Shown: positions 24,425 through 43,383, numbered from the stretch's first letter. The stretch is 64,000 nt of DNA from Candidatus Moraniibacteriota bacterium (GCA_016699875.1 CP064989.1:848525-912524), one strand, 5' to 3'. Program-made: numbers and translations. The notes: a model not told the origin generated them from the sequence alone.

Positions 24425-24436
24425 GGAGGGCAACCT

Positions 24437-25753: not shown

Positions 25754-25779
25754 TGGGCGGGAAGAGCACCGAATTCAAA

Positions 25780-25866
25780 ATTTCAAGTTCCAAATAAATT
25801 TCAAATTCCAAACAGGAGTTCCTGGTTCTCTCTTCGATGTTTTGGTGTTTATTTGGAACTTGGAAT
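25780..25866. repeat. large imperfect inverted repeat in murA-mreB spacer
   Basis: The left arm is ttcaagttccaaataaa and the right arm is tttatttggaacttgga, about 50 nt apart. Further ttccaaa/tttggaa sub-repeats are present. Coordinates are approximate. Confidence 0.4.
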
Positions 25867-25888
25867 TTGATTTTTGGAATTTTTACAC

Positions 25889-26896
25889 ATGTTTGTCAAA
25901 AAGATCGGTATTGATTTGGGGACGGCGAATACGCTGGTCTTTGTTCCCGGGCGGGGGATCGTAGTGAACGAGCCCTCGGTAGTTGCCGTATCTATCGGTG
26001 AGAACAAGGTGCTTGCCGTCGGCAATGAAGCCAAGGAGATGCTTGGTCGGACACCTGACACTATCGTTGCGTCGCAACCGCTTCGGGATGGCGCCATTGC
26101 CGACTATCGTATCACCGAGGCGATGCTTCGATATTTTATCGGGCTTGTGTCCGGGCGACTGCGCTTTTTCCGTCCGGAAGTCGTGCTCTCTATTCCGGCG
26201 GGCGTGACCTCGACAGAGCGCCGTGCCGTAGTGGATGCGGCGATCAAAGCGGGCGCTAAGTCCGCCTATGTCGTCAAGGAACCGATACTCGCGGCGATCG
26301 GAGCGGGCATCCCGATTCACACGGCGCAGGGGAATATGATTATCAATATCGGCGGCGGCACGTCTGAAATCGCGATTATCTCGCTTGGAGGAATTGTTGC
26401 GGCGCACTCGGCGCGCGTCGGCGGAAATCGTATTGATCAGGCGATATCGGACTATATCAAGCGCAAGTACAGTATGGCGATCGGCGAGCGCACTGCGGAG
26501 GAGGTAAAGAAGACGATCGGATCGGCGATTGCCTTAGTCAAAGAAGAATACTTTGATCTGCGCGGGCGCGATCTCATGGGTGGACTCCCGAAGACGCTCA
26601 CGGTGTCATCGAATGAAATCACCGAGGCGATACAGGACGAGCTTCGTGAAATTATAAACGTCATCAAACATGTGCTCCAGGAAACGCCACCCGAACTCGC
26701 CGCGGATATCATGGACAAGGGCATGATACTCTCGGGCGGCACGGCCCAACTCAAAAATCTGGATCAGCTGATAGCGCGCACGATCGGCGTGCCCTGTTTC
26801 GTTGCTGATGATGCGGCGTTTTGTGTTGCCAAGGGAACCGGCATCGTGCTTGAAAATCTCGACATCTACAAGCGAAGCATCATGATTGGTAAGTAG
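25889..26896 (+). CDS. mreB: rod shape-determining protein MreB (actin homolog)
   Basis: MFVKKIGIDLGTANTLVFVPGRGIVVNEPSVVAV.. and the ..IGGGTSEIAIISLGGIV.. and ..LSGGTAQLKNLDQLI.. motifs are present. ATG 25889 is chosen over the table TTG at 25874. Confidence 0.9.
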   Translation: MFVKKIGIDLGTANTLVFVPGRGIVVNEPSVVAVSIGENKVLAVGNEAKEMLGRTPDTIVASQPLRDGAIADYRITEAMLRYFIGLVSGRLRFFRPEVVLSIPAGVTSTERRAVVDAAIKAGAKSAYVVKEPILAAIGAGIPIHTAQGNMIINIGGGTSEIAIISLGGIVAAHSARVGGNRIDQAISDYIKRKYSMAIGERTAEEVKKTIGSAIALVKEEYFDLRGRDLMGGLPKTLTVSSNEITEAIQDELREIINVIKHVLQETPPELAADIMDKGMILSGGTAQLKNLDQLIARTIGVPCFVADDAAFCVAKGTGIVLENLDIYKRSIMIGK

Positions 26897-26926
26897 ATTG
26901 AGAACATTCAAATATCGAAGTACTGA

Positions 26927-28093
26927 ATGTTTTTATCTTCCGTTTTTATGATTATCGGCATTGATGCGTCGCGGGCGTTTCTTGCGAAGCGAACAGGGAT
27001 AGAAGAGTATTCATACCAACTGATCAAACATTTGCGCCATGAACTTGCAGGAGAGCGGGTTGTTTTGTATGTGAGGGCAACCAACAACAGGCAACAAACG
27101 ACAAGCAGTAAACAATCAATAACAGATGGGATTGATTTTGAATTGCCAGAAAAATGGGCGGTGCGAGAACTGTGGGCGCCAAGGTTCTGGACGCAAGGGA
27201 GATTGGCGATCGAGATGCTGTTTCATTCGGTGGATGTGCTTTTCGTACCGGCGCATACGGTGCCATGGATACATCCGAAACGAACAGTCGTCGTGGTTCA
27301 CGGACTCGAGTACGAATTCTGTCCCGAGACCTACTCGCTGTGGGAGCGGATCTATATGCGGTGGTCGATCAGAAATTCTTGCCGGTGGGCATCCTCGATT
27401 ATTGCCGTTTCTGAAAATACGAAGCGAGATTTGATGAGTCGGTATAGCATGCCGGAGGAGAAGATGCGAGTGGTGTATGAGGGAGTGTCTTACCTACAAT
27501 TTCCAACTGACAACGAGCAATCGGATTCAAGACCCTCTGTTTCAAGGTTTCCGATTTCCAATCCGTACTTTCTCTTCATTGGACGGATTGAGGCAAGGAA
27601 AAACGTGAGGAGAATCATCGCGGCATTTGATCGCTTCAAGAAAAAGCACGGGACAAATCACCAGCTTGTTTTGGCGGGAAAGCCGGGATTTGGATATGAG
27701 GTTATCAGCGATCAGTTGAAGACGCTACCTTGTCGGGAGGACGTGGTTGAGGCTGGTTATGTCAGCGAAGAGGAGAAATGGCGGCTTTTGCGGAATGCGA
27801 ATGGGTTTCTCTTTCCGACATTGTATGAAGGGTTCGGTCTCCCGGTTCTTGAAGCGCAATCGGCCGGTGTGCCGGTCGTAACATCGAATGTCTCGTCGCT
27901 GCCGGAAGTGTCCGGTTCGGATTCAGCTATTCTCGTTGATCCTCTGAATGTCGAGGAGATTGCTCAGGGAATAGAAAAAATCGCCTTGGATCAAGGCTTT
28001 CGCAGTGGTATAATCGAACGAGGCTTTCAAAATGCCGCTCGGTTCAGCTGGGAAGCGTGCGCAAGAGAGATTGCGGAGCTGTTGAAACTATGA
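26927..28093 (+). CDS. glycosyltransferase family 4 (GT-B, group 1)
   Basis: The C-terminal ..LFPTLYEGFGLPVLEAQSAGVPVVTSN.. is the EX7E-type GT4 motif. Confidence 0.8.
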   Translation: MFLSSVFMIIGIDASRAFLAKRTGIEEYSYQLIKHLRHELAGERVVLYVRATNNRQQTTSSKQSITDGIDFELPEKWAVRELWAPRFWTQGRLAIEMLFHSVDVLFVPAHTVPWIHPKRTVVVVHGLEYEFCPETYSLWERIYMRWSIRNSCRWASSIIAVSENTKRDLMSRYSMPEEKMRVVYEGVSYLQFPTDNEQSDSRPSVSRFPISNPYFLFIGRIEARKNVRRIIAAFDRFKKKHGTNHQLVLAGKPGFGYEVISDQLKTLPCREDVVEAGYVSEEEKWRLLRNANGFLFPTLYEGFGLPVLEAQSAGVPVVTSNVSSLPEVSGSDSAILVDPLNVEEIAQGIEKIALDQGFRSGIIERGFQNAARFSWEACAREIAELLKL

Positions 28094-28161
28094 GGCTCTA
28101 TAACTGAACTGTTGGAGGGTTTCATAGCTTTTTGGGGACTCAAGGGTAAAAAAGGGAAATG

Positions 28162-28192
28162 AAAAACCCGTTGATGTGATCTCGGGGTTTTT
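28162..28192. terminator. bidirectional hairpin terminator between convergent genes
   Basis: AAAAACCCG..loop..CGGGGTTTTT, flanked by A-tract and T-tract. Confidence 0.4.
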
Positions 28193-28215
28193 GGTTAGTG
28201 ACTGGTTTCGTGGGA

Positions 28216-28464
28216 TTAATCAATCACTCGCATCGCCCAGAGTTCATCGTCCGTGTATTCCTCTGAAGCAAATTGATCTCGAGCAAGTTGGTTAACGGGT
28301 TGAATATCCCATTCCTCTGGAACTTCATCGCCAACAGCTATACCTGGGCAGTTTGGATCTGTGATGAAAATAAATTTCCCATTGACTTCCCTGGCGTAGC
28401 CACCGCCCTGTGTTACGTAAACAGGGTACTTTCGATCTTCAAGGTCATTCAATTTTTTTTCCAC
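28216..28464 (-). CDS. hypothetical protein (82 aa, acidic)
   Basis: ORF only. No family recognised. Confidence 0.35.
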   Translation of the reverse strand: MEKKLNDLEDRKYPVYVTQGGGYAREVNGKFIFITDPNCPGIAVGDEVPEEWDIQPVNQLARDQFASEEYTDDELWAMRVID

Positions 28465-28757
28465 GGGAACTCTCCTAGTTTTTCTTGATTGTGGTCTATC
28501 ATTTTCCAGAACTTGATGTCCTGCACGATACCCAGTAAAAGAACTGTGACTGCTCCTCCTATGCCTATGGTAAATATGATGCCAAGGATAACCTCTTTAA
28601 TTGTTATTCGGACAGCGAGTATTTCTTTGGATGCCACTGCAATAAGCACCACTATCAAGACAACTACCACTAATGTGTGACAAATGTAACGTAGCGTCCA
28701 TCGTTTTTTCATGGGGTCTCTCCTAATTGGTAAGGTATCGTCTGTGATTCCAGACAC
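28449..28757 (-). CDS. hypothetical small membrane protein (2 predicted TM)
   Basis: Hydrophobic segments are LVVVVLIVVLIAVA and ILGIIFTIGIGGAVTVLLLGIV. Internal Met MKKRW (start codon near 28712) is an alternative start. Confidence 0.4.
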   Translation of the reverse strand: MSGITDDTLPIRRDPMKKRWTLRYICHTLVVVVLIVVLIAVASKEILAVRITIKEVILGIIFTIGIGGAVTVLLLGIVQDIKFWKMIDHNQEKLGEFPWKKN

Positions 28758-28768
28758 AAAATTCTAGC

Positions 28769-29926
28769 ATGTATATGGAAAAAAGTCAAGTACCACAGAA
28801 TATGACGGAAGAACTTGGGAAGGTGGCTTTGGTGCACGATTTTCTCTTGTATCGCGGTGGGGCGGAGCGGGTACTTCGGGTGCTTTCGAATATGTTTCCG
28901 GAGGCGCCGATTTATACGCTCCTCTATGACCCGGAAGGGATGCGAGGAATGTTTGCGGATCGGGAGGTGCGCACATCGTTTCTGGGGAAGTGGCCGAAGT
29001 TTTTACAGCGTCGGCATCGGTGGCTCTTGCCGTTTTATGGAGCGGCGACGGAGGCGATCGACCTTCGGGATTTCGATCTGGTCATTTCGTCATCGGGTGC
29101 GTGGAGTAAGGGGATTGTGACGCGGCTTCGCACGAAACATGTGGCGTATCTTCACTCGCCGATGCGCTTTGTATGGGATGAGAATGAGCGGTACCTTCGC
29201 GAGAGCGGCGGGTTTCATTTTTGCAAACGCGCGTTGCTCTCATATTTGCGGCTCTGGGATTTCGAAGCGGCGGCGCGGCCGGATGTGCTCGTCGCCAATT
29301 CCAGCTATACGCAGGCTCGCATCGAGAAATACTATCGCCGTCCGTCGGAAGTGATCTATCCGTCGGTCCGCCGATTGCCAGCAACAGAGCAGGGCGCACG
29401 CGATATCAGAGACAGACCATTTGTGACGGTTTCGCGACTTTCAAAATACAAGCATACTGAGGCTATTGTGAAGGCATTTATACAGCTCAAGCTTCCGCTT
29501 ACGGTAGTTGGAACAGGAAGGGAGTTGGAATGCTTGCAGCGTATAGCTCCTCCGAATGTGTATTTTCTTGGCGATATATCGGATGGTGAATTGGGTACGG
29601 TGCTTGGGAAGGCGCGGGCATTTGTATTTGCGGGGGAGGAAGACTTTGGATTGGCGCTTGCCGAGGCGCAGATGGCGGGGCTTCCGGCCATCACGCTTGC
29701 TTCCGGTGGTGCCGGGGAAATTGTGAGAGAAGATATTTCCGGAGTGTTCTTCTCAGTGCCCAATGCGGAGAGTATCGTTGCGGCGGTGCAGCGCTATATT
29801 GAGCAGGAAGATTCTTTCGATCGGGAAAAAATACGGAATGACACCGAGAGGTTTTCAGAGGAGCTGTTTCGAGAGGCAATGAAGAGGAGTATCCTGAAAT
29901 GCGTACACGAAAAGAAACAGGGCTGA
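28769..29926 (+). CDS. glycosyltransferase family 4
   Basis: ..FAGEEDFGLALAEAQMAGLPAITLASGGAGEIV.. is a GT4 C-terminal motif. Confidence 0.8.
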   Translation: MYMEKSQVPQNMTEELGKVALVHDFLLYRGGAERVLRVLSNMFPEAPIYTLLYDPEGMRGMFADREVRTSFLGKWPKFLQRRHRWLLPFYGAATEAIDLRDFDLVISSSGAWSKGIVTRLRTKHVAYLHSPMRFVWDENERYLRESGGFHFCKRALLSYLRLWDFEAAARPDVLVANSSYTQARIEKYYRRPSEVIYPSVRRLPATEQGARDIRDRPFVTVSRLSKYKHTEAIVKAFIQLKLPLTVVGTGRELECLQRIAPPNVYFLGDISDGELGTVLGKARAFVFAGEEDFGLALAEAQMAGLPAITLASGGAGEIVREDISGVFFSVPNAESIVAAVQRYIEQEDSFDREKIRNDTERFSEELFREAMKRSILKCVHEKKQG

Positions 29927-29969
29927 TTCGAAAATGCTTGCCGTATCCTTCATGTGATTCCATTCACCT

Positions 29970-30875
29970 ATGATTCTCGGGCATGAAGCAATTCGGGATC
30001 GACTCCGACGAGCGGTCGAAAAACGATGTGCCGCGCAGACATATCTTTTTGTCGGGCCGGAGAGTGTCGGGAAGCTGTCGGTTGCTCTTGATTTTGCAAG
30101 GCGGCTTTCGGGGGACGATTCGCTGTCCGATTGTTCGGTTATCCGGTCGGAGCGGGTTGAAGAAAAAGGAAAAGTAAAAGAAATGCCCATAAGCGTTAAG
30201 ATGATCCGTGAGGCGACGCGCGCGCTTGGACTCTCCGGACGCAACGGAACAAGAACGATACTTATCGTGGATGATGCGCACAAAATGTCTGAGGGGGCGC
30301 AGAATGCATTTCTTAAGACGCTCGAAGAGCCGCTTCCCGGAGTGACGATTATTCTGGTGACGCATAATGAAGGGGGCGTTCTCTCGACGATTCTCTCCAG
30401 GTGCGAGCGGGTATCGTTTTCTTTGGTTTCGAGGGATGTGATCGACACGGGGTTTCCGGATGTTCCCGAAGCGATTCGTCGACTCGGTCGTCCGGGACTC
30501 TGTATTTCTGTGAGGGAGCATCCCGATGAATTTGCGGAGTCTTTTCGTAGATTGGATAGGCTTCAGTCGTTTCATCTGCTTTCAATCAGCGATCGCGCCA
30601 TGCTTGCGGATGCGTGCGTGAATGATATCTCAGCGGCGGAGCGATTGTTCTCCTGGTGGATGAGCTTCTTGACTCAAGAGTTGTCGGCCGATGTTTCCAC
30701 GGCAAGTCGTCGGCGAGAGATACTCAAACTCCTCCATGCTATCGCGGCAACGCTTCGTGATGTGAGACGATTTCCCGGAAGTGTGCGACTGACCGTGGAG
30801 CAGCTCTTTTTCTTTCGGGAAAGTTCCTCGACGCTCTTCTCGAGGAATATGACAAAGAGCGGACTCGCAAAGTGA
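29970..30875 (+). CDS. holB: DNA polymerase III subunit delta' (clamp-loader AAA+ protein)
   Basis: ..AQTYLFVGPESVGK.. is a degenerate Walker A typical of delta'. ..ILIVDDAHKMSEGAQNAFLKTLEEP.. matches the SRC/sensor region of clamp-loader subunits. Confidence 0.7.
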   Translation: MILGHEAIRDRLRRAVEKRCAAQTYLFVGPESVGKLSVALDFARRLSGDDSLSDCSVIRSERVEEKGKVKEMPISVKMIREATRALGLSGRNGTRTILIVDDAHKMSEGAQNAFLKTLEEPLPGVTIILVTHNEGGVLSTILSRCERVSFSLVSRDVIDTGFPDVPEAIRRLGRPGLCISVREHPDEFAESFRRLDRLQSFHLLSISDRAMLADACVNDISAAERLFSWWMSFLTQELSADVSTASRRREILKLLHAIAATLRDVRRFPGSVRLTVEQLFFFRESSSTLFSRNMTKSGLAK

Positions 30876-30918
30876 CCAAAGTTGTTTTATTCTTTCCATA
30901 CGTACGGCGAATTTTCGT

Positions 30919-31905
30919 ATGAAGTTTTTCCGAACAAAGAAATCGCGAGGAGACTCATCAACGCTTTTGCGTCCGAAGCGAAGCCGATTATTTCGCGCCG
31001 CTCTTCGGAAGCAGCAGAGAACTATCTCTCAAGAGAATGTGCGACGGTGGTCGTTGTGGGCGGTGGGATACGTGCTTCTCTGGGGAGCATTTTTTGGACT
31101 TGTTATTTTCGCGTTGTTTTTCTCTTCATTGCTCCGGATCGACCAGGAAGATATCGATCCGCTGAAATATGTCTCGATGGATGAAGTGAATGCGGTAATC
31201 CGCGACGAACTCTCCGGGAAAGTATTCGGCATATTTCCGAAAGATACGATACCGGTTGCTTTTCTGCGACGGCATATATTGGAACGAAAGATTCTTGAAG
31301 TCTTTCCGGTGCTTCGAAGTGTAACGGTTTCTTTTGCTTTTCCAGAAATGATTATCTTAAAAAGCGAGGAGCGAGTTCCCACGCTGATGTTTTGTTCGGG
31401 CGGTCCGTGCTTCTTGGTTGATGAACGAGGTGTCGCCTTTGAAGGAGTGCCGAATCCGAGTGCTGCGAGCGAGCCGAAAGTGCTCTCTGTTATAGACATG
31501 TCTGCCAAACCGGTTTCGCAGCAAGACCCGTTGTTTTCAGAAGATTTCCTGAAAGTGTTTCCTGTTATACGACAGCGACTTCTTGACGAGCTTGGCGTGG
31601 AGGTATCGAATATTGCCGAAACACCGTCTCGTCTCTCGGACGAGTTGTGGTTTCGGAGCGTAGACGGATGGAAATTGCGTATGAGTGCGACTGTGCCGGT
31701 GGAAAAGTCAATGCTCGCGCTCCGGCTTCTTTTTGCAAAAACGCTCTCCGAAGGCGATCTAAAAAATCTCGATTACATCGATCTTCGAACGGAGAACCGG
31801 ATTTTCTATGCTATGAAGGGCGATGAACAAAAAGAACACGAAACGACTTCAGATGATGAGTCAGAGAATGAATCAAGCGATGCTTCACAAGAGAAGGGAA
31901 AGTAA
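30919..31905 (+). CDS. FtsQ/DivIB-like cell division protein (cytoplasmic tail + 1 TM + POTRA-like domain), acidic C-terminal tail
   Basis: A basic N-terminus is followed by a TM (WSLWAVGYVLLWGAFFGLVIFALFF). A POTRA-like segment (IDPLKYVSMDEVNAVIRDEL..VTVSFAFPEMIILKSEERVP..FLVDERGVAF) follows. It ends in a DDESENESSD tail. Confidence 0.55.
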   Translation: MKFFRTKKSRGDSSTLLRPKRSRLFRAALRKQQRTISQENVRRWSLWAVGYVLLWGAFFGLVIFALFFSSLLRIDQEDIDPLKYVSMDEVNAVIRDELSGKVFGIFPKDTIPVAFLRRHILERKILEVFPVLRSVTVSFAFPEMIILKSEERVPTLMFCSGGPCFLVDERGVAFEGVPNPSAASEPKVLSVIDMSAKPVSQQDPLFSEDFLKVFPVIRQRLLDELGVEVSNIAETPSRLSDELWFRSVDGWKLRMSATVPVEKSMLALRLLFAKTLSEGDLKNLDYIDLRTENRIFYAMKGDEQKEHETTSDDESENESSDASQEKGK

Positions 31906-31911
31906 TGATTT

Positions 31912-33879
31912 CTATCGCTCTTGCCCGGGAACGCGGTCCACGTAGAAGATGAATATGGAGTCGCCAGCACGGCCGACCAGCGAGTGCTGTGGAATCCACA
32001 AGTAGTTTATGGATCCTGCTGGTTGCGGTTTGTAAATGCTCTCTTGGTAGAATCCTGCGGAAACGGCATACCAGCCGGGTTCCGGTACGCTGTCGCTGTG
32101 CCAGGATTTGTATTTATTGCCGAGGAAATATTCCGGACTTGATCCGCCGAAGTAGTCGACGCGGATTGTCTGTATCGGCAACGACGTTGGAAAGCTCTTC
32201 CCATCGGTGAGAGCGCGGCATTGGGCTGAGTCGGTTTGGCTGTTGTTGACGCAAAGATTGTAGGTGTCGACCCAGGTTTGCAACCGCTTCGCATCCTGCC
32301 CCCAATCGTAGTTGGAGTCGGTGACATACTTATACCCCTCGGTGTGTCCGCCCATGGCCGTATTGAAATAGGACAGATAGCCCGGATAGGAGAATACCGG
32401 TATGAGGAGTATCCAGCAAGTGAAGAGAAAGATGAATCCTCGCATGATGCTCCAGGTAGTGTGATTGCCGTGGTGGCGCTTCCAATAGTCGAACACGGCT
32501 TTGGTTCCGAGGACGTAGAGGAAAGGAAGGATTGGGAAGAGATGTCTGAAGCCGATATTGAGATTTCCGGTAATACTGAGATAACTGTAGAGCGCAACAA
32601 ATCCGAGCATGGTGTACTGCGCAATATGCGATTGGAATGAGTGTGCGAATATGCCGCTCCATGTTCGCCCGTCTTTTCTGTTCGCATGCGCAACCTTTGT
32701 GATGCGTCGGAGTCCGTAGAGGAGTCCGAAACCGAGTATGGCAAGGAATGGCAACGTAGATTTCATGAGAAAGACAATGGGAAAATAGAGCGAAGTCGCT
32801 TGATTGGAAACCGTGCCAAGAAAGTAATAGGTATTGCCACCGGAGACGCGCGCAAACACCATGAAGACGCCGAGGAAATACTGCGCGAGCGGCTTCATAA
32901 GGGGGATTTCGCTCATTCCAACGATAGTGGATTCGGCGAATCGTCCAATAGCGCGGTCATTGGGGAATTGCGCCCGTGCAATTTCCTGTACGGTTTCTGC
33001 AGACATATTCCAGGTATTTGGCACATAGAGTGCCCAGATGGCGATGAAGCATATTGCGACTGATCCTGCGAATTTGAAGATGAGAGAGAAAAAGAATTTC
33101 CACTTCCACATGCGACGATCTGCTCCTTCAAGAGTGTCCGGAGCGGGTTTTGAGAGCGCATAAAGAAGAACAATGAGTCCGAAGAGCGGGAACAGCGTGA
33201 CGGCTGAGAACTTGGCAAGGTTGGCGAGTCCGAGGAAAACTCCCGAGAGAATTGTGTTTTTCGCAGATGGGTCTTTAAGGAATCTAACGAAAAAATAAAC
33301 GGAAAAGAAAACGAATGCCGCGATGCCGATATCGGTTGTGACGAGATGATCGTGTCCGAGGACATTGGGATCGGCGGCGTAGAGCAAGAGCGCGAAGAGT
33401 CCGGCGACGGTGCCGGCAAGTTCGCGTGTCCATCGAAAGATAGCGAATCCAAGGAAGAGTGCGATGAGAATAATAGGAAGTCTTGCAAAGAATGTCACCC
33501 GGTTTGGATCATTGCCCATGCTGAAAAGGAATTGGTCGCCAAATGTCCACTGTGCGAATCCCCATGATTGCGCCGGTCCTTCCGGATGATTGCTTGGGTC
33601 TACACTCTCATCGCCTCGCGTCCAGAGTGTGCTTGGGACGGGAAATGCCGGCAATGGAGAGATGAGAAGCATGGCGAGTCCGGAGAGGTCTTTGATGAGA
33701 GGAGGATGCTCGGGGTTGATGCGCATATCAAGATAGCGCACGTAGCTGTAGGAAGCGGGGATATGCGCCTTCTCATCCATTGTGGTGGAGTCATCCCAGG
33801 CGAGACGGAGTGATACAGCTGCAAGCGTGACCAGTATCCCAGCAACAAACCATGCGGCGTATTTTTTCAAGAATTCCAT
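31912..33879 (-). CDS. GT-C fold membrane glycosyltransferase, family 39/83-like (PMT/ArnT-like, polyprenyl-phosphate-sugar dependent)
   Basis: The protein is 655 aa with about 11 TM. The N-terminal first-loop region (..DEKAHIPASYSYVRYLDMRINPEHPPLIKDLSG..) resembles the DE-motif loop of PMT_2/ArnT-type enzymes. A large C-terminal extracytoplasmic domain is present. Confidence 0.7.
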   Translation of the reverse strand: MEFLKKYAAWFVAGILVTLAAVSLRLAWDDSTTMDEKAHIPASYSYVRYLDMRINPEHPPLIKDLSGLAMLLISPLPAFPVPSTLWTRGDESVDPSNHPEGPAQSWGFAQWTFGDQFLFSMGNDPNRVTFFARLPIILIALFLGFAIFRWTRELAGTVAGLFALLLYAADPNVLGHDHLVTTDIGIAAFVFFSVYFFVRFLKDPSAKNTILSGVFLGLANLAKFSAVTLFPLFGLIVLLYALSKPAPDTLEGADRRMWKWKFFFSLIFKFAGSVAICFIAIWALYVPNTWNMSAETVQEIARAQFPNDRAIGRFAESTIVGMSEIPLMKPLAQYFLGVFMVFARVSGGNTYYFLGTVSNQATSLYFPIVFLMKSTLPFLAILGFGLLYGLRRITKVAHANRKDGRTWSGIFAHSFQSHIAQYTMLGFVALYSYLSITGNLNIGFRHLFPILPFLYVLGTKAVFDYWKRHHGNHTTWSIMRGFIFLFTCWILLIPVFSYPGYLSYFNTAMGGHTEGYKYVTDSNYDWGQDAKRLQTWVDTYNLCVNNSQTDSAQCRALTDGKSFPTSLPIQTIRVDYFGGSSPEYFLGNKYKSWHSDSVPEPGWYAVSAGFYQESIYKPQPAGSINYLWIPQHSLVGRAGDSIFIFYVDRVPGQER

Positions 33880-33940
33880 ATGAGTAACGGGTAAAGATGT
33901 ATTAAAAACCCAAACACTACACTGAGGTGTGGCATTCGTC

Positions 33941-35626
33941 CTATTGTATCATGATCACTTGGAAATTTTTTTGCGAGGTATATTGGAAGGGAATAGTGGT
34001 AACGGTGGATTTCTTCGGAAGAGTGAGGCGAACCTTTTCGGCGATAGCATCATCCCATTTTTGCGGAATGATAACGGCAGGCGTTTGAATGATCGTGTCC
34101 GGCTTCAGAAATTCGACCGGAGCCCTCTTGGCATCGTGAGTGAGAAAGAGAAATGGCTGGGCGGTAATCGGGAGACCGTTATCAATCATGGTGCCGCCCG
34201 CATTGGCGAGGATATACGCATGTGTATCGGTCGGCAGGGTGTTTATGAAGTATGCCATGGAGGTGAAATCTTCGTTAAAGGCACTTCGGGCATTTTGGTT
34301 GTTGGCGAAAAAGAGAAAGTATTTGCTGACATTCCAGAGGGGAATGCAGGCGAGGACGGTTCCGACAAAGAGTATCATGCCGATTTGTGCGCCCAACTTC
34401 CGTTTTCTGAGCCACTCGCCAAACCACAACAATGGAATGCTCGCGATGAGAAAGACGACCGGCTGAGTGCCGATAGCACGAAGGGCGTGGGGGAGCCCTT
34501 CTGCGGTCAAGAATTCCGGAATGAGCATGGTGAAAAACCATCCGAGAAGAAAGAGGGAAATCATGAGCTCTCGATTTCGTTCGGTATACTTCCATCGTTT
34601 CCGAATGAGAAGCGTGATACGCATGAGAAGGAAAACAAACCCGGCAAGAAACAATATGCCGCTCACGAGGTCAAGAAGCGGATAAGGCGGATAGTTGTGT
34701 CGCCAATTCATATCGCCTACAAAGGTATACTTGATCAGAGAAAGGCTGAGCGTTTTGGCGAGCGTGAGAGCGAAGTGTCCGTGATTGACCGCGGGCGAGA
34801 AAATGGAAATCGATGCCGATCGCGATGAAACATATTCCGGATGCTTGACGAATTCATAGACGAGCGGCAGGGCAGTAATGAGCATGCCGCCAGTGAAGAT
34901 GAGCGCCTGTCTCCAGTAGTGTTTTAAAAACTCTCGATAGGAAGCCATGCATCCGATCGTCACGATGAGGAGAATGAGCGGTGCGACGCGGAAGGCAATA
35001 TACGTATGGAATCCGAGTCCAAAGATGATGCCAGAGATGAGAAATGAGAGGAGACTCTTGGTGCGAAGACCGCGGAAGAAGAAAAAGAACGAAAACGAGA
35101 GAATGAACGGCACCATGATGGCGCGGAAGCCGATCCTTGAAAAGTTAATCGCCCAATAGGAAAAAGTGAGAAGAAAAGCGGAAAAGAGCGCGACGCTACG
35201 TTTGTGCCAGAGTTCTTTGGCGAGCAAATAGATACCGAGCACGGTTGCCGTGCCGAATATCGCCGACCAGAGTTTGAGCGCTGGGATAGTGGCGCCAAAG
35301 AGGAGGAGTGCGAGTGCTTGGAGATTAATGAAGAGTCCTTCTCGCCCGCTGTTGTTGGGGTAGAAAAGCTGATAATCACCGGTTTCATTGGCATGAATGG
35401 CATCGACGCCATTCATCGCTTCGTCGGGATAGAGTCCGGCGGGGAGATGCTCGATATTCCAGAATCGCAAAAAGAACGCGGCTGCCAAAAGCACGACAAG
35501 AACGGAAATGGTTATCAGTTTTTCCGCCGTAAAAAAATGCCCGAAGAAATGCCGTCGCATAATAAATGGAAGTGTTTTGTTTTCGTCTTGACGATTCAAT
35601 TGGAGAAGCGTCGTCGATACGTTCAA
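33941..35626 (-). CDS. GT-C fold membrane glycosyltransferase family 39/83 (ArnT/PMT-like)
   Basis: ..LYPDEAMNGVDAIHANETGDY..FYPNNSGREGLF.. is the conserved first periplasmic loop with DE motif of the ArnT/PMT_2 family. It has multiple TM. Internal Met (MRRHFFGHFF, start near 35560) is a likely alternative start. Confidence 0.75.
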   Translation of the reverse strand: MNVSTTLLQLNRQDENKTLPFIMRRHFFGHFFTAEKLITISVLVVLLAAAFFLRFWNIEHLPAGLYPDEAMNGVDAIHANETGDYQLFYPNNSGREGLFINLQALALLLFGATIPALKLWSAIFGTATVLGIYLLAKELWHKRSVALFSAFLLTFSYWAINFSRIGFRAIMVPFILSFSFFFFFRGLRTKSLLSFLISGIIFGLGFHTYIAFRVAPLILLIVTIGCMASYREFLKHYWRQALIFTGGMLITALPLVYEFVKHPEYVSSRSASISIFSPAVNHGHFALTLAKTLSLSLIKYTFVGDMNWRHNYPPYPLLDLVSGILFLAGFVFLLMRITLLIRKRWKYTERNRELMISLFLLGWFFTMLIPEFLTAEGLPHALRAIGTQPVVFLIASIPLLWFGEWLRKRKLGAQIGMILFVGTVLACIPLWNVSKYFLFFANNQNARSAFNEDFTSMAYFINTLPTDTHAYILANAGGTMIDNGLPITAQPFLFLTHDAKRAPVEFLKPDTIIQTPAVIIPQKWDDAIAEKVRLTLPKKSTVTTIPFQYTSQKNFQVIMIQ

Positions 35627-35630
35627 ATGA

Positions 35631-35639
35631 TGGTATAAT
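35631..35639 (+). promoter_or_regulatory. candidate extended -10 element (TGnTATAAT) upstream of the 1100-aa gene
   Basis: tggtataat lies about 35 nt upstream of ATG 35673. No clear -35 element. Confidence 0.25.
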
Positions 35640-35672
35640 TATACCACGAATTATTTTTTCTTTGCGTTCGAT

Positions 35673-38600
35673 ATGAAAGCCGAAGTTGTTTCTTTGGATT
35701 CTTCTGAGGCAACTCTCTCTCCCGGAGAGAGAGTGTTTAATCTTCTGCCGGAAACTGTTCAGGGTAAACTTTCCGGTCGCTATAATAGGGAAGAAATAGC
35801 GAGGCGAGTACTTCGGGAGCTTGGAGAAGGAAAACGAGATGACAGATCTCTACATAATGGAGTTGTGTCAGCTATTTACCTTGACAAAGATATTCCATCT
35901 TCAATCAAGAAGGGTCTTTTGAGACATCTGGGCAGTATCGTTCCAGCGCAGGAAAATGAGACTTTGAAATTCTTTAAAAAGGTGAATAAAAACTTGGAAA
36001 ACCAACAAGTGCGTAAAGGAGACGTGCGGCAGCAGAATTCAACTTCAGCGGATACGCACAGGCATGACGATGACGCTATTGATCGGGAGGTTCGAGCGGT
36101 TGGCGCGGATATGCACCCCGATCATAGTGAAAAACTTGAACAAAAAAAGTATATTGCAAGAGAAAGAGCTTCCAAAAAGTCAAAGCAAGCAAAAGTGGCA
36201 AGTGTTCCAGGGGAATCCCATGACAGCAGAAAACCTTCAAACCTCGAAGGGAATGTTCAGGGTGACGCATCTGTATCCGAAGATCTTCCTGATGACCAAA
36301 AAGTAAGTCCGCCAAACGAGGGGTATTTCGGCTCGCTTGATTACATAGAAGCAATAGATGATCAAAGTCTGGATGCTTCAGTCGCGCAGCAAGAGGGAAT
36401 TGATTGGGAGGGTGTCAAGAAGGATTTTGATGAAGAAGGGAAAAGGATACAGGAGGAACGTGCGCGTTCAGTGAAGTTCAATCGATTGGATGTACAGGAA
36501 ACGTTCGACCAAGGAATGGAGCAATTGAAAAATCGTGACAAACTTGCTGAACGTTTTCGTGATGTTAAAAGCTTCGATGAGCTCTTAGTGCTTCTCAATG
36601 ATCCGGAGTTTCCCGGAATTCAGGGCTCGAAGCAGTTCTACTCCGGTGATGACTTGAAAAGAATAATTGCCATAGCTCGAGAAACTGGAGCGACGAAATT
36701 TGTCACACGCTCTCATGGATTTCTTGATATGGCGGAGCGGCTCTTGCGCGAGGAGAAAGAAGGAAAGATTGGCGCATTGAAAGAGGATAATATTGTGGAA
36801 GGTTTTGGTGTTGTGAACCGTACAGCTCCCGGTGTTTTTGAAAGAGTTCCGGATGCGCTGAATGAATTGCATATTGAGAAAGAGAATGATCTTTCTCGCG
36901 CAGTCGAATCTTTGGAAGAGCTTCAGGAGAGGGTGGATCGATTGAAAAATGATGCAGATGCTGCAAGAAATCTCTTGTTCTCTTGTCGACGGAAGAATGG
37001 TGATCGATGGAAGGAGGTGAAAAAGTTTTTTGCTTTTCCAAAGGAAAAGGAAGCTCCAAAACCAGTGATTGAAGAATGGGAAATGTTGGAGGTGGCTTGG
37101 AAATATAGACTTACCCTCTACAAGGATGCTCGGGTGGAGTTGGCAAAGCGCCAGGTTGCAGAAGGTGGTTTGCAAGGGAGGGATGTCGGTGCTGTTATGG
37201 CGGAGACGATTCGGGAGTTGGATTTTCGCGGAAGAGTGGAAAACTACAATGCGTGGAAAGATGCGGCGTGGAGTGGCAAGAAGGATTCATGGCTTCTTCG
37301 GGCAGTCGGTCGGGCGAAAGATTGGGGCGAATCGTATCGAAAGCTTGACTGGAAGAAGCGCGCGGCGATTTCCGCGCTGGTGATAGGCGCGGGCGCGACC
37401 GGCGTTGCCGTAGGATCAGTCGGATTGATTGGATTGGGTGCGGCAAGTGGCGTGGCGGTCCGATTGCTGGGGTCATACGCCGCCGGGCGCGGACTTTATG
37501 AATACCTGGAGGGTCGTGCCAACAAAGATACGGTGAAGTTTCAGGAGGCAGCACTTTCTCATGTCGAGCAATCCGGCGATATTGGTTTCCTCGATCATCG
37601 TACGCGGGATTATGCCGATCGAATACGGAAGGATTTCGAACAGATGACGAGGAAGAATCGGAAACGGGTGTGGGCGGGCGTAGCTGCCGGAGCATTACTT
37701 TTTGCGGGCGGGACGGCGCTCTCGCTCGCGCATGCGGCAAGTGCGGCGGAGCGGGTAGTGGACGGTGGAAGTGGCAAACAAGTTGTACAAGATGCTCTTA
37801 CAGCGAGAGGTGCTGAGATTCCGGAGATATCAAAAAATGTTCCTGTTGTTCCGAGTGTTGTCGAAGCGAGCGTACCTGCATCGGATACGAGTGGGCTTAT
37901 GCCGGATTCGGTTGGATCGGGGGTGGTTGACCATGGGATATCGGTTGAGGCTGCCGGGGACATTGGGAAAAGTTTTGAGAATATGGAAATAGCTGCCGTT
38001 CCAAAGGGCGGGAGTTTCGAGAAGGTTCTCATTGAGAAGCTTACGGGAGTCGGGATTCCTAAAGAAGAAGCAGGGAAGCTGGCGCATCGGGCGATGCTTG
38101 ACTTGGCGGAGAAATCAGGAAAGTCGTTTGAGATATTTAATCATATCCAACCAGGTGCGGAGATTCAGTATGAGATAGGTCCGGACAAATCCCTCTCTGT
38201 GTTTGGTGTGACCAGGGAAGCTGGCGGTCGGGTGATTCAGCGGATGGCGGGTTCTGCCCTGGAGGGAAGCCATGCTTCGCCGGATGTGCAAGTCCTCGAA
38301 GAGGTTCTGTCTCCGCCTTTGCAGCCGACTGATGCGGTCTCTGTTCCCTCTGTTCAGACGCCTCCTTTGAGCTCGTTTCCAAAGATGCCCGAAGTAAACC
38401 TGGAGTCTCCACCGGATATTTTTGATCGCGTGCTTCCGGAAGTGCCACAAATTCCTCCTCTTGAAGACACACTGAGCGGGAATGTTCCTCTTGATACTTC
38501 AGTATCTGCACATCCTCTTGAATCTATTTCGACAAACATCCCTGCCCCGGCGCATGATTTCGAGTCGCTTGACCTTTCTGTTCCCGGCGGGGAATATCTG

Positions 38601-38975
38601 AAGAATATCGGTTCGGTAGTAAAGGAAAGGCTGACATTCCTTCCGCTTTCCGAAACACAGAAAGATCTTATAGAGAACATCTTTAGTGCGAGAATTCCGA
38701 CGGCGGGCACTGAGCCGACAACGAGTTCCGTGTTGTTTGTAAGAGATGCTCTTGGAAAAGCTCTTTTCTCGTCGGGTGATGTGGAACGCTGGATGCAAGC
38801 TGATATCGAACAAGTGCGAGAGAGGGTGAATAAGGCAATCTATGCCGGCATTGTTCGTATTGGTGGCGAGTCGCTACGCATTGGAAAAATGGTCGCGGAG
38901 GGTGAGACGGTAGAGGGTTGGCTGACAAAAATGGCGCGACATATCCTTACACATCCGATTGAACCTGCGAAATAA
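35673..38975 (+). CDS. large hypothetical membrane protein (1100 aa): acidic or disordered N-terminal half, two Gly/Ala-rich TM segments, P/S-rich C-terminal region
   Basis: It is a long uninterrupted ORF. TM-like glycine-zipper segments are AISALVIGAGATGVAVGSVGLIGLGAASGVAV and VWAGVAAGALLFAGGTALSLAHAA. No enzymatic motif was recognised. Confidence 0.6.
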   Translation: MKAEVVSLDSSEATLSPGERVFNLLPETVQGKLSGRYNREEIARRVLRELGEGKRDDRSLHNGVVSAIYLDKDIPSSIKKGLLRHLGSIVPAQENETLKFFKKVNKNLENQQVRKGDVRQQNSTSADTHRHDDDAIDREVRAVGADMHPDHSEKLEQKKYIARERASKKSKQAKVASVPGESHDSRKPSNLEGNVQGDASVSEDLPDDQKVSPPNEGYFGSLDYIEAIDDQSLDASVAQQEGIDWEGVKKDFDEEGKRIQEERARSVKFNRLDVQETFDQGMEQLKNRDKLAERFRDVKSFDELLVLLNDPEFPGIQGSKQFYSGDDLKRIIAIARETGATKFVTRSHGFLDMAERLLREEKEGKIGALKEDNIVEGFGVVNRTAPGVFERVPDALNELHIEKENDLSRAVESLEELQERVDRLKNDADAARNLLFSCRRKNGDRWKEVKKFFAFPKEKEAPKPVIEEWEMLEVAWKYRLTLYKDARVELAKRQVAEGGLQGRDVGAVMAETIRELDFRGRVENYNAWKDAAWSGKKDSWLLRAVGRAKDWGESYRKLDWKKRAAISALVIGAGATGVAVGSVGLIGLGAASGVAVRLLGSYAAGRGLYEYLEGRANKDTVKFQEAALSHVEQSGDIGFLDHRTRDYADRIRKDFEQMTRKNRKRVWAGVAAGALLFAGGTALSLAHAASAAERVVDGGSGKQVVQDALTARGAEIPEISKNVPVVPSVVEASVPASDTSGLMPDSVGSGVVDHGISVEAAGDIGKSFENMEIAAVPKGGSFEKVLIEKLTGVGIPKEEAGKLAHRAMLDLAEKSGKSFEIFNHIQPGAEIQYEIGPDKSLSVFGVTREAGGRVIQRMAGSALEGSHASPDVQVLEEVLSPPLQPTDAVSVPSVQTPPLSSFPKMPEVNLESPPDIFDRVLPEVPQIPPLEDTLSGNVPLDTSVSAHPLESISTNIPAPAHDFESLDLSVPGGEYLKNIGSVVKERLTFLPLSETQKDLIENIFSARIPTAGTEPTTSSVLFVRDALGKALFSSGDVERWMQADIEQVRERVNKAIYAGIVRIGGESLRIGKMVAEGETVEGWLTKMARHILTHPIEPAK

Positions 38976-39007
38976 TCCGATTTTTCTCATTCTTAAAACC
39001 TTCTTCT

Positions 39008-39346
39008 ATGTCGCTCTCTATCGAACAGGTCAAGGCCGATCTCATAAAAGAATTCGGATTGGAAACGCTGCCGGATGCAAAACAGCAGGAGCTTTTGGAT
39101 ATGATGACGGAAACGGTCATGAAGCAAATATTTCTCGCGCTTGGGGAAAAGATGGGGGATGACGGCGCGGACGAATTCGAGGCGCTGATGAAAGCGGGTG
39201 ATCAGGAGAAGGTAGAGGCATTTATCAAGCGCTTTGTGCCGGATCCGGATGCCTTTGTGAAGGGAATTGTTGCGGAGTTTCGTGATGCGATGAAGAACGG
39301 AGGAATCCCGGCCGGTCCTGAGAATATGGAGAAGTCCGGTGAGTAG
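39008..39346 (+). CDS. hypothetical acidic protein (112 aa)
   Basis: ORF with an ATG start. No family recognised. Confidence 0.4.
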   Translation: MSLSIEQVKADLIKEFGLETLPDAKQQELLDMMTETVMKQIFLALGEKMGDDGADEFEALMKAGDQEKVEAFIKRFVPDPDAFVKGIVAEFRDAMKNGGIPAGPENMEKSGE

Positions 39347-39916
39347 ATGTGTTTGTGTAGTAGTTTTTCTTTAGAGAGAAATTTTATGCTACGGGAAGAT
39401 AGAATGGAACATATGGGACAGCCGAAAGCAGGGAATGTTTTTGATTATGCCGGGTCTCTGGATGACGAGAGTGACTTTGAAGCTTTGAAGAGGGAAAATG
39501 AGGCTGAGCGCGGTGAGAAATTGCAAATGAAAAGGAATTCGGAAATGAAAACTCTTCAAGAAGATTTCGATCGAGATTCCGAAAAGATACAACGGGAGCG
39601 TGCTCTCGTGCGGAGAACTTCAGAGAGAAAGGTTCTCCAAGAGAAAGTTGAGAGGTTGAAAATGGAATATCATGAGAGTATGAAGCGGCGGAATGAGTAT
39701 GCCGAGGCGGAGAGAAATCGCGGGTTTATGAAAAGAATGTGGGAGAAACTTTTTGTGCCTCGAAATGCCTCATCTCCGGATCGTTTGAATGTTATTGCGC
39801 TTGATACACGTGTTCGACAGAGTCTTGCTATGTATCGAGCTGCCAAGAAAGAACTTGAAGATGTTGAACGGTTGATCTCAGCGGAGAAACCAGAGCCACA
39901 AATGAAAGGGAGCTAA
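39347..39916 (+). CDS. hypothetical coiled-coil protein
   Basis: K/E/R-rich heptad-like sequence. It abuts the previous gene. Internal Met (MLREDRMEH) is the likely start. Confidence 0.4.
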   Translation: MCLCSSFSLERNFMLREDRMEHMGQPKAGNVFDYAGSLDDESDFEALKRENEAERGEKLQMKRNSEMKTLQEDFDRDSEKIQRERALVRRTSERKVLQEKVERLKMEYHESMKRRNEYAEAERNRGFMKRMWEKLFVPRNASSPDRLNVIALDTRVRQSLAMYRAAKKELEDVERLISAEKPEPQMKGS

Positions 39917-39939
39917 TTTTTTAGATTGACGATATATTT

Positions 39940-40401
39940 ATGCCTGAAGAAAAGAGTATCATCGGCGTGCCGGAAGATGTGGCGGAGAAGTTGAAATCGG
40001 ATGATTCGGAGAGTGTTCGAGATATATTGGATGTTCCGGGGAGACGATCGGAGTTGTGGGTGGACGGGAAGATGGAAAAGCATGCCGACGCTCACGAAAG
40101 CGCCTCGCAGTATGAGAAGAAATTGGGCGAAGTACAGGCGGCACCATCCACATCGACATCGGCCTCAATGTTGAAGGATGATGCGGTAAAATTCGATGCC
40201 GATGCAATTCGTCATATGGAGGATGCGGTAGCGCGAGTGCAGAAGCTTCTTGAGCTGGCCCGTATCAAAGGAGTGGCACATGCGGTGTCGGTAGCGGAGC
40301 ATATCGATGCGTATACCTTGGATCTTACACATGATCGTATGGCAGATGAACTTGCGGATGAACTTCGCAAGCAGGGGATGCTTGATGATGCAACAGAGTA
40401 G
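39940..40401 (+). CDS. hypothetical acidic protein (153 aa)
   Basis: ORF only. Confidence 0.4.
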   Translation: MPEEKSIIGVPEDVAEKLKSDDSESVRDILDVPGRRSELWVDGKMEKHADAHESASQYEKKLGEVQAAPSTSTSASMLKDDAVKFDADAIRHMEDAVARVQKLLELARIKGVAHAVSVAEHIDAYTLDLTHDRMADELADELRKQGMLDDATE

Positions 40402-40429
40402 TTGATGATGAGCGGCATGTCATTTCACT

Positions 40430-42931: not shown

Positions 42932-43011
42932 CCATTGACACATTATACGACTTCATGGTATACATATCAGTAGCACTTTTTGAACCAAGAATTTAGAGAG
43001 GATAATGCATC

Positions 43012-43335
43012 ATGAACAATGCATTGGTAGTGTTGGTGGTTGCAGTGTCATGGGCGGTTCTTTTCTTTGCAGAGCAAGAAGCGATGCAAGTGTGGTCATG
43101 GATGATCATTGCGTCTGCTATTTTTGCGATGACTTCCCTCGGCTTTGTCTTTCTGGGATTCTTCGCTCGCCGAGGAAGGAGATACCCGTTCTTTATTGCG
43201 GCGGCCATCCCTCTGTTCCTTTCAGTTGCCCTCATGTTTGTCGGGCATGAGGAACACGAAGATCTTCTTGGTAAGATACGCGCTGAGAGGAGAATTCAAG
43301 AGAAAATATACATGATCCAACTTGGACGGATGTGA
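43012..43335 (+). CDS. hypothetical small membrane protein (3 hydrophobic segments)
   Basis: VVLVVAVSWAVLFFA, WMIIASAIFAMTSLGFVFLGFF and FFIAAAIPLFLSVALMFVG. Confidence 0.4.
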   Translation: MNNALVVLVVAVSWAVLFFAEQEAMQVWSWMIIASAIFAMTSLGFVFLGFFARRGRRYPFFIAAAIPLFLSVALMFVGHEEHEDLLGKIRAERRIQEKIYMIQLGRM

Positions 43336-43383
43336 ATATCGCATTTTGGAAACAGAGCATGACTTTTGTTGCTCTCAGGCTGG

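Follow-up and report, generated by a model that had tools for sequence, protein, structure and literature searches.

As judged from profile searches and predicted structures, two adjacent genes in the very small genome (about 1.09 Mb) of a CPR bacterium of the Moranbacteria encode GT-C-fold, PMT_2-family proteins in which the loop-1 'DE' motif is intact. The genes, here called A and B, lie within a 64,000-nucleotide stretch of Candidatus Moraniibacteriota DNA (GCA_016699875.1, CP064989.1:848525-912524; hereafter the window), and the pair is a lineage-wide conserved core module of Moranbacteria, not a special island. The best explanation of the data as a whole, to which a probability of about 0.75 is assigned, is that A and B are catalytically competent GT-C(A) glycosyltransferases expressed from one B-to-A transcript as a core envelope module.

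Table 1. Genes A and B, their conserved motifs and associated features (positions counted from the first nucleotide of the window).
Feature	Position	Strand	Basis or remark
Gene A, GT-C glycosyltransferase, 655 aa	31912..33879	minus	ORF confirmed
A YKYVTDSNYDWGQD, start of C-terminal outside domain	32293..32334	minus	alignment; low pLDDT
A R445-H-L-F448, Rx2(F/Y) motif, fifth outside loop	32536..32547	minus	R445, H446, L447, F448 invariant
A second outside loop, DPNVLGHDHLVTTD	33331..33372	minus	alignment
A H58-P-P-L-I-K63	33691..33708	minus	H58, P59, P60, K63 invariant (alignment)
A loop-1 'DE' motif, D35-E36, invariant	33772..33777	minus	32-sequence alignment
B-A spacer, 61 nt	33880..33940	minus	no terminator-like site on minus strand
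Gene B, GT-C glycosyltransferase, 539 aa, small C-terminal outside domain	33941..35560	minus	homologue lengths, Pfam, AF2
B loop-1 'DE' motif, D46-E47, invariant, context LYPDEA	35420..35425	minus	32-sequence alignment
Intergenic region separating B from the divergent 1100-aa membrane-protein gene	35561..35672	.	presumed promoter region
1100-aa membrane-protein gene, divergent from B	35673..38975	plus	
MOP-superfamily flippase, candidate donor carrier	43384..44865	minus	Polysacc_synt 89.7 bits, MurJ 44.5 bits
GT2 with two C-terminal TM helices, candidate donor synthase	54057..55025	minus	Glycos_transf_2 at 85 bits

The original prediction of two adjacent GT-C enzymes carrying a DE-loop was borne out: both open reading frames are present at the predicted minus-strand coordinates, both proteins exceed the Pfam PMT_2 (PF13231) gathering cut-off of 26.1 bits (50.0 bits for A and 35.5 for B), and the DE motif is invariant. 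The reading frame of B as originally listed extends to a TTG at 35626. The start is most likely the ATG at 35560, because the homologues are 529-545 aa long and cover 96% of the long reading frame, and a 99%-identical protein has 539 aa.

The further assignment to a 'GT39/83-like (PMT/ArnT-type)' class held for the PMT_2 family, the GT-C fold and the PMT-like motifs of A, but not for the strict GT39 features or for sequence homology to ArnT. The PMT family (PF02366) gave no match to the A protein in a Pfam scan at E<=0.1 and only 19.3 bits, under the 22.7 cut-off, for B; many or most A homologues carry a precomputed PF02366 match. PMT_4TMC (PF16192), which defines the PMT core (PMC12331936), was matched by neither A nor B nor any homologue listed. 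By these profile comparisons strict CAZy GT39 membership fails, there being no PF02366 above threshold, no PMT_4TMC and no detectable homology to characterised PMTs. The NCBI name of these proteins, 'glycosyltransferase family 39 protein', is a database name and not a CAZy/dbCAN classification.

AlphaFold models of both proteins are confident, and their sole structural relatives are GT-C enzymes (ArnT, Pmt4, STT3/AglB/PglB and ALG). The features of the GT-C(A) structural class are found in each: a polytopic fold in the predicted models, and acidic residues in the first outside loop (D35-E36 in A, D46-E47 in B). The B model (pLDDT 87, pTM 0.88) gave Foldseek TM values of about 0.5 to STT3 and ArnT, and its predicted shape is ArnT/STT3-like, more so than that of A. 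Searches of all PDB chains with single sequences (phmmer) and with 32-sequence profiles (hmmsearch) returned no match for A or B at E<=1, and neither protein has sequence similarity to the ArnT structures 5EZM and 5F15, the likeness being at the level of the fold. The family placement of A and B therefore rests on Pfam and predicted structure, and their residue equivalences to solved GT-C enzymes on motif pattern and predicted topology. When A was compared with B, BLASTP found nothing significant, and in profile-profile alignment the match was confined to the PMT_2 core (E 6e-4, probability 29%); by this sequence comparison the two are anciently diverged proteins, not recent duplicates.

Homologues of A (>1,500) and B (>2,800) were found in a 90%-cluster database at full-length identities of 49-99%, and relatives of A occur in 446 GTDB species genomes and among 5,397 50%-cluster representatives at E<=1e-30. 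In 32-sequence alignments of A and B, 80-126 positions are invariant and are concentrated in the outside loops, and the DE and further loop motifs stay invariant across sequences that are merely about 50% identical. For A, which is predicted to have 11 TM helices, an inside N-terminus and an outside C-terminal domain of ~155 aa, invariant residues make up 24% of the predicted outside positions, 14% of those within TM segments and 6.5% of the inside ones. In the predicted model of A, pLDDT is <50 for the three loops that are most conserved.

The roles proposed for the DE, HPPxxK and Rx2(F/Y) motifs follow two published descriptions (PMC8698208, PMC12331936). By analogy with Pmt and ArnT, D35-E36 would be the catalytic motif of A loop 1. 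The H58-P-P-L-I-K63 sequence has, in a comparison by eye, the same pattern as H159/P161/K164 of Streptomyces coelicolor Pmt, the donor-phosphate-binding residues of its loop 1 (PMC8698208). R445-H-L-F448, assigned to loop 5 by topology without a structural alignment, resembles the Rx2(F/Y) motifs R441-Y444 of MtPMT and R649-F652 of ScPmt1 (PMC12331936). Judged by motif pattern and predicted topology, the GT39 active-site pattern is invariant in A (D35E36, H58/P60/K63, R445/F448); its residues are those of donor binding and do not contact the acceptor. The DPNVLGHDHLVTTD loop, with invariant D170, P171, N172, H176, H178, T181, T182 and D183, is a candidate site for a second catalytic Asp, by comparison with MtPMT D176 (PMC12331936). 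The most conserved motif of the A family is YKYVTDSNYDWGQD (Y516, Y518, T520-N523 and D525-D529 invariant), and the two conserved cysteines of the C-terminal domain, C543 and C554, fit an extracytoplasmic location. In B, the GT39 pattern of DE...H-x-P-x-x-K in loop 1 and R-x2-Y/F in loop 5 is absent, and no conserved acidic residue was seen in the second outside loop of the 32-sequence alignment.

Comparison with bacterial Pmt (GT39; Mycobacterium tuberculosis Rv1002c and S. coelicolor Pmt) shows what A does and does not share with this family. Common to both, with the motifs of A matched by pattern and predicted topology, are the GT-C(A) fold, an outside C-terminus after 11 TM helices, the loop-1 DE, H-P-P-x-x-K, an Asp-containing loop 2, Rx2(F/Y) in loop 5, a presumed polyprenyl-P-monosaccharide donor and a gene that is core to its lineage. 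Unlike Pmt, A lacks PMT_4TMC and, in the window protein, a PF02366 match; it has no sequence or profile similarity to the solved Pmt1, Pmt2 and Pmt4, a DE-to-HPP spacing of 23 residues as against about 46, and a different C-terminal half, in which the additional ~155-aa outside domain has its own invariant YVTDSNYDWGQD motif. Neither A nor B resembles ArnT, the GT83 lipid A aminoarabinose transferase, at the sequence level, and the position of ArnT Lys85 is a His in A. CPR bacteria are generally regarded as monoderms that lack lipid A; since, in addition, the window showed no LPS genes, the acceptor probably differs from that of ArnT.

The same logic, in which a membrane-anchored GT2 makes an Und-P-sugar that is flipped and then transferred outside by a GT-C enzyme, is found in GtrA/B/C, in CsbB-GtcA-YfhO and in Bacillus subtilis YkcC-YkcB, where YkcB is likewise a PMT_2-type GT-C in a monoderm. 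However, those multi-component systems pair a GT-A with a GT-C gene and are accessory or serotype-specific, whereas the A/B pair consists of two unrelated GT-C genes, is core and invariant, has no adjacent GT-A gene and has no GtrA-type flippase in the window. Among eukaryotes, the PMT_2-related O-mannosyltransferases TMTC1-4 and TMEM260 demonstrate that protein acceptors are possible for PMT_2/ArnT-like GT-C enzymes (PMC7801869, PMC10214176); they differ from A and B in having TPR or other acceptor-binding domains and share no specific similarity with them.

In 68 of 72 Moranbacteria genomes the gene immediately upstream of A, and on its strand, is B, at a median spacing of about 108 nt; in the other four no B adjoins A. 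An ftsQ-like gene is convergent to the pair and downstream of it (64/71 genomes), within a block, murA-mreB-GT4-GT4-holB-ftsQ-like / A-B, that is fixed in Moranbacteria. B and A are probably co-transcribed. Scans for promoters and terminators gave matches that were not clearly over shuffled expectation and none that fits a functional site, the single sigma-70-like match (35677..35650) being weak and no better than chance; tRNA and Rfam scans found nothing in or near the A/B region. On the other side of B, the divergent 1100-aa protein of this genome combines two TM helices with an outside tail rich in Pro, Ser and Thr. Its candidacy as an acceptor is not supported: the 80 positional counterparts in other genomes range from 330 to 1650 aa and have inconsistent TM and STP features, and detectable homology extends to only 11 of them.

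Other glycan genes of the window had been taken to supply every step of a pathway in which a sugar is built on a polyprenyl-phosphate carrier, flipped and transferred. The parts list for extracytoplasmic glycosylation is indeed plausible, since a UDP-sugar dehydrogenase, a flippase of the MOP superfamily and a GT2 are all present, but it is drawn from two separate conserved blocks, and no GtrA-type flippase was found. The predicted UDP-sugar 6-dehydrogenase (UGDH) scored 407 bits, against 190, with the nucleotide-sugar dehydrogenase model TIGR03026, and all four GT4 genes were located (26927, 28769, 47812 and 52769). As a proposed polyprenyl-phosphate-sugar synthase, the GT2 has the expected C-terminal TM helices and full-length matches to AglJ, PgfS and ArnC, but all of these fall far under the NCBIfam cut-offs; an enzyme of the GtrB/AglJ/PpgS/ArnC/PgfS type is plausible from its sequence. 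The protein called a Wzx flippase does belong to the MOP superfamily. However, SpoVB/MurJ-type models match it at least as well, with SpoVB the best NCBIfam match; it may therefore be a lipid II flippase of the SpoVB/MurJ type or one of the Wzx type. No GtrA/SMR-type flippase was found among the small window ORFs scanned against Pfam. The 666-aa protein (50772..52772), considered GT-C-like, is a DUF6541/DUF1616 membrane protein, 100% identical to IPK84_04325, with no PDB match and no significant profile-profile similarity to A or B.

A distance of 18 kb separates the GT2 from A/B, and it belongs to a separate block (UGDH-GT2-GT4-DUF6541-GT4-RtcB-Tmk-MOP) that keeps its own order in other Moranbacteria. 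The UGDH-GT2-DUF6541-MOP block is missing within +-10 kb of A/B in 78-79 of 80 genomes, and none of the 80 has an orthologous GT2 in the +-10 kb around A (two weak matches, 24% identity). The operon partner of the GT2 is therefore DUF6541, not A/B, and since the GT2 sits in a different conserved block, its link to A/B is one that we infer.

Taken together, these data suggest a mechanism in which A and B would be expressed from their common transcript and would use a polyprenyl(undecaprenyl)-phosphate-sugar donor. Its cytoplasmic synthesis would fall to a GtrB-like GT2, for example that at 54057..55025, and it would be carried across the membrane by a flippase for which the MOP protein is a candidate. 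Each enzyme would most likely take a single sugar from the donor at the outer face of the cytoplasmic membrane and would transfer it, with inversion, onto an extracytoplasmic acceptor, which the loop-1 Asp (A D35, B D46) would activate while basic residues of loops 1 and 5 would hold the donor phosphate. The acceptor may be a wall glycopolymer or glycolipid (~45%), secreted or membrane proteins in a PMT-like reaction chiefly by A (~40%), or another component (~15%). A literature search for GT-C or GT39 enzymes, or glycans, of CPR/Patescibacteria/Moranbacteria found nothing relevant.

A tentative reading is that the acceptor of A and B is an envelope component other than protein: a membrane glycolipid or a secondary cell-wall glycopolymer, whose synthesis the two GT4 enzymes encoded nearby may initiate. 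The nearest analogies would be mycobacterial Emb/Aft/PimE and the Gram-positive multi-component transmembrane glycosylation systems. The fixed synteny with murA, mreB, the two GT4 genes and the ftsQ-like gene is in keeping with this, as are the weak similarity of those GT4s to glycolipid and teichuronic-acid GT4 enzymes and the C-terminal half and outside domain of A, which are unlike PMT. Where bacterial PMT_2-type enzymes outside Actinobacteria have been characterised, most modify lipids or glycans. However, the block includes holB, so that its gene order may be inherited and not functional; A/B are convergent to ftsQ and constitute a transcription unit of their own; the window showed no genes for teichoic acid, LCP or priming phosphoglycosyltransferases; and A/B have no GT-A gene beside them, as typical GT-A/GT-C pairs do (PMC8035078). 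Less likely is that A, B or both O-glycosylate type IV pilins or an S-layer protein with a sugar for which the UGDH and GT2 of the window would be the source and the 43384 protein the flippase. The PMT-like motifs and 11 TM helices of A, the PF02366 matches of most of its homologues and the use of MATE/Wzx-type flippases by such systems (PMC11127046, PMC8035078) are consistent with it, and Pseudomonas aeruginosa O-glycosylates its pilin from a polyprenyl-P-pentose donor (PMC11127046). The two major pilins, 11 kb away, were proposed as Ser/Thr-rich acceptors; their Ser+Thr content is raised (21% against a background of 12.7%), but such richness is usual in pilins and unremarkable. In addition, pilin/T4P genes lie outside the conserved A/B neighbourhood, the GT2, UGDH and MOP genes are unlinked to A/B in other genomes, strict GT39 features are missing and the flippase is at least as SpoVB/MurJ-like as Wzx-like. 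Classical pilin O-glycosylation relies on Wzy_C-type enzymes; Wzy_C (PF04932) is absent from A, B and every window gene scanned, whereas other Moranbacteria carry one close to their glycan block. A Saccharibacteria pilus study predicted pilin O-glycosylation in silico only. Similarity within the GT-C clan is no predictor of acceptor type: the nearest relative of the TMTCs, which modify proteins, is ArnT, an enzyme of lipid A (PMC7801869).

Compatible with either acceptor type is an obligate A-B heterocomplex like Pmt1-Pmt2 or EmbA-EmbB. Catalytic motifs are kept in both proteins, GT-C heterodimers have been solved (PDB 6p25, 7bvc) and the genes are adjacent in one orientation at short spacing; adjacency is equally explained by sequential steps or shared regulation, however, and with four genomes in which B is not adjacent to A the arrangement seems doubtful. 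That one or both reading frames are non-functional (a pseudo-enzyme, decaying gene or chance ORF) is extremely improbable and close to refuted by conservation: nothing specific points that way apart from the loop 2 of B, without its acidic residue, and against it both proteins are full-length and strongly conserved, mainly at their outside loops. The most ambitious reading joins several of these ideas, with A and B as a PMT-like heteromeric O-glycosyltransferase of pilins or other exposed surface proteins, universal in Moranbacteria, widespread in Parcubacteria and needed for an episymbiotic lifestyle, whose C-terminal acceptor-binding domain would be marked by YVTDSNYDWGQD. It is distinctly unlikely; if true, it would place a PMT-type protein O-glycosylation machine in CPR bacteria, with an undescribed C-terminal domain, and would merit a CAZy family of its own.

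Overall, the interpretation of A and B as a core pair of GT-C(A) glycosyltransferases adds new members to a known family and fold; generic public annotation already exists, so that the finding itself adds little to the databases, and the proposed pathway combines separately conserved blocks. Since CPR/Patescibacteria live on the surface of other cells with very small genomes, the surface-building genes that they keep are probably important. This genome, at ~1.09 Mb, retains two large GT-C enzymes as an invariant pair which, given the thousands of relatives of A, offers a good entry point to whichever glycan or glycoprotein is conserved on the surface of these bacteria.

The original prediction of two adjacent GT-C genes was borne out. 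The products of A (31912..33879) and of its same-strand neighbour B, 61 nt upstream, both matched the Pfam family PMT_2 above its cut-off of 26.1 bits (50 bits for A, 35.5 bits for B), and both adopted a GT-C fold in AlphaFold2 models that were rated confident (pLDDT 82 and pTM 0.85 for A, pLDDT 87 and pTM 0.88 for B). GT-C enzymes were the only meaningful structural neighbours of the two models, and Foldseek with the B model returned STT3, AglB and ArnT at TM about 0.5. Strict membership of GT39 or GT83 failed for A and B on every sequence-based criterion tested. The match of B to PMT (PF02366) was below threshold, the only NCBIfam match of A was to Agl23, far sub-threshold, and searches of solved structures with single sequences or 32-sequence profiles gave no sequence match for either protein. 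Public annotation of the pair reads 'glycosyltransferase family 39 protein', 'ArnT-like' or 'phospholipid carrier-dependent glycosyltransferase'. As judged from the models, A and B are GT-C(A)-fold enzymes, neither of them close to a characterised family.

The listed ORF of B begins at TTG 35626; because its homologues are 529-545 aa long and a 99%-identical relative has 539 aa, ATG 35560 is the likely start. A and B are not recent paralogues: they did not match each other by BLASTP, and hhalign aligned the PMT_2 core alone (E 6e-4, probability 29%). Scans for tRNAs and Rfam families gave no match in or near the A/B region.

Coordinates and sequence features of the GT-C pair, the glycan block and other genes in the window
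Feature	Position	Strand	Remarks
A	31912..33879	minus	655 aa
A, Asp-Glu D35-E36			directly after TM1; kept in alignment, coordinates checked
A, most-conserved segment	32293..32334	minus	residues 516-529
A, most-conserved segment	32536..32565	minus	residues 439-448
A, most-conserved segment	32794..32841	minus	residues 347-362
B, Asp-Glu D46-E47 (PDE)			directly after TM1; kept in alignment, coordinates checked
Type IV pilus cluster	14912..21137	plus	PilB, PilC fused to SH3 domain, several pilin-like genes
Protein divergent from B	35673..38975	plus	1100 aa, no Pfam match
VirD4/TraG-like coupling-protein ATPase	39008..42931	plus	
Conserved glycan block	43384..56634	minus	UGDH-GT2-GT4-DUF6541-GT4-RtcB-Tmk-MOP flippase; RtcB and Tmk embedded
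IS4/IS5-family transposase, DDE_Tnp_1 ORF	49503..49859	minus	
IS4/IS5-family transposase, DUF4096 ORF	49962..50285	minus	
DUF6541/DUF1616 polytopic membrane protein	50772..52772	minus	666 aa; overlaps upstream GT4 gene by 4 nt
GT2	54057..55025	minus	two C-terminal TM helices, GtrB-type architecture
VirD4/TraG-like coupling-protein ATPase	58071..61501	plus	treble-clef zinc finger

Alignments whose members share only about 50% identity left 126 positions of A and 87 of B invariant. The model of A has 11 TM helices, an inside N-terminus and an outside C-terminal domain of ~155 aa containing two conserved Cys residues. Invariant residues make up 24% of the predicted outside segments, 14% of the TM segments and 6.5% of the inside segments. 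The sequence H58-P-P-L-x-K63 of A has the same pattern as H159/P161/K164 in loop 1 of Streptomyces coelicolor Pmt, residues assigned to donor-phosphate binding (PMC8698208). Moreover, the second outside loop is Asp-rich (D170...D183), and the fifth carries R445-x2-F448, which resembles the Rx2Y/F motif of MtPMT and yeast Pmt1/2 (PMC12331936); these equivalences with Pmt residues rest on motif pattern and predicted topology, rather than on a structural alignment. In A, conservation peaks in three motifs, GGNTYYFLGTVSNQ, NLNIGFRHLFP and YKYVTDSNYDWGQD, which fall exactly in model segments with pLDDT below 50; they are probably outside loops that stay mobile until substrate binding orders them. 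Other conserved outside motifs of B are GDxNWRHNYPPY and PEFxxxEGxPHxxRxxGT, and its modelled C-terminal outside domain is small and β-rich. In its presumed mode of action, A comes closest to a bacterial PMT and B to ArnT/STT3.

When one genome per GTDB species was scanned, relatives of A turned up in 446 genomes. The 80 best were all Moranbacteria-type records, some mislabelled, and homologues of both proteins bear Moranbacteria names. Among these 80, 72 loci had room for B, and at 68 of them it was the immediate upstream neighbour of A, in the same orientation; an A orthologue without B directly upstream was seen in four genomes (L037, L053, L063 and L070). An ftsQ-like gene is convergent downstream of A (64/71 loci); beyond it holB, two GT4 genes, mreB and murA stand in a fixed order, and a VirD4-like gene flanks the pair on the side opposite ftsQ. 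Gene calls gave the same order in three long contigs. At E<=1e-30 the A profile retrieved 5,397 50%-identity cluster representatives, and the single named representative sampled was a 'Parcubacteria group bacterium'; the family thus extends well beyond Moranbacteria.

The first coupling-protein ATPase of the window comes after a DUF5663 protein and one of 153 aa, in a string (DUF8128-type) that is conserved beside the GT-C pair in Moranbacteria. The other appears to have been split off the 432-aa ORF ahead of it. Plus-strand genes predominate, and the few minus-strand ones include the GT-C pair and the glycan block; GC skew (2-kb bins, 1..64000) is positive in all bins and its cumulative curve rises monotonically.

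The GT2, dehydrogenase and MOP proteins that had been named as further pathway parts are indeed present. The GT2 aligned over its full length to AglJ, PgfS and ArnC and partially to PpgS, at scores far below cut-offs. The dehydrogenase does belong to the nucleotide-sugar dehydrogenases, but is nearer to UDP-ManNAc/GlcNAc than to UDP-glucose dehydrogenases. The supposed Wzx flippase is a MOP protein matching Polysacc_synt (Pfam), but because SpoVB and MurJ lead its NCBIfam matches it may be the lipid II flippase. Flippases of the MATE/Wzx type are documented in such glycosylation systems (PMC11127046, PMC8035078); the window's small ORFs that were scanned included no flippase of the GtrA or SMR type.

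The order of the glycan block is identical in two other Moranbacteria (L088 and L089; 40-67% identity). In the window it is broken by an IS5-type transposase (49503..50285), itself split into two ORFs, which separates GT4 (47812) from DUF6541 (50772), whereas in other Moranbacteria it is contiguous. At L088 and L089 the block is flanked by a Wzy_C protein and a GT4, and also by PMT_2 paralogues that are not orthologous to A or B. The immediate partner of the GT2 is thus the DUF6541 membrane protein, possibly also its real one, which has the invariant motifs TSTDLGHH, SGGVxGN, DIPSNR and KDHNY and no detectable relation to A, B or any solved structure. Several GT-C enzymes can be supplied by a single GT2 (PMC8035078), and a link from the GT2 to A and B is therefore possible. 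In other genomes, the closest relative excepted, the glycan block was missing from the 10 kb to either side of A/B, which speaks against the single complete pathway of the original prediction.

None of the tests here points to the acceptor of A and B, and similarity within the GT-C clan does not predict it; the TMTCs, which modify proteins, have their nearest kin in the lipid A enzyme ArnT (PMC7801869). Our estimate is about 40% for a protein, 45% for a glycopolymer or glycolipid and 15% for other acceptors. The pilins, proposed as protein acceptors, are Ser/Thr-rich as described (21% Ser+Thr vs 12.7%), but they lie outside the conserved A/B neighbourhood, and such richness is usual for pilins. 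The tandem major-pilin paralogues (20054..20518 and 20679..21137) have near-identical N-termini. In this genome, the 1100-aa protein divergent from B has two TM helices; ~560 aa lie inside, and its C-terminal part, which is outside, is rich in Pro, Ser and Thr at residues 860-960. A role as substrate in a conserved enzyme-substrate pair is not supported, its counterparts by position being too variable (330 to 1650 aa); they also evolve fast. A hint of wall biogenesis comes from the synteny of A/B with murA, mreB and ftsQ, although holB is also in that block and A/B are transcribed as a convergent unit of their own.

A literature search found no work on the GT-C enzymes of Patescibacteria; in one Saccharibacteria paper, pilin O-glycosylation was predicted computationally only. 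Overall, the PMT_2/GT-C family gains two new members in A and B, a finding that is real and ordinary in kind. What had been read as a complete pathway is the sum of independently conserved blocks, and the new fact is that A and B are an invariant core pair of Moranbacteria.
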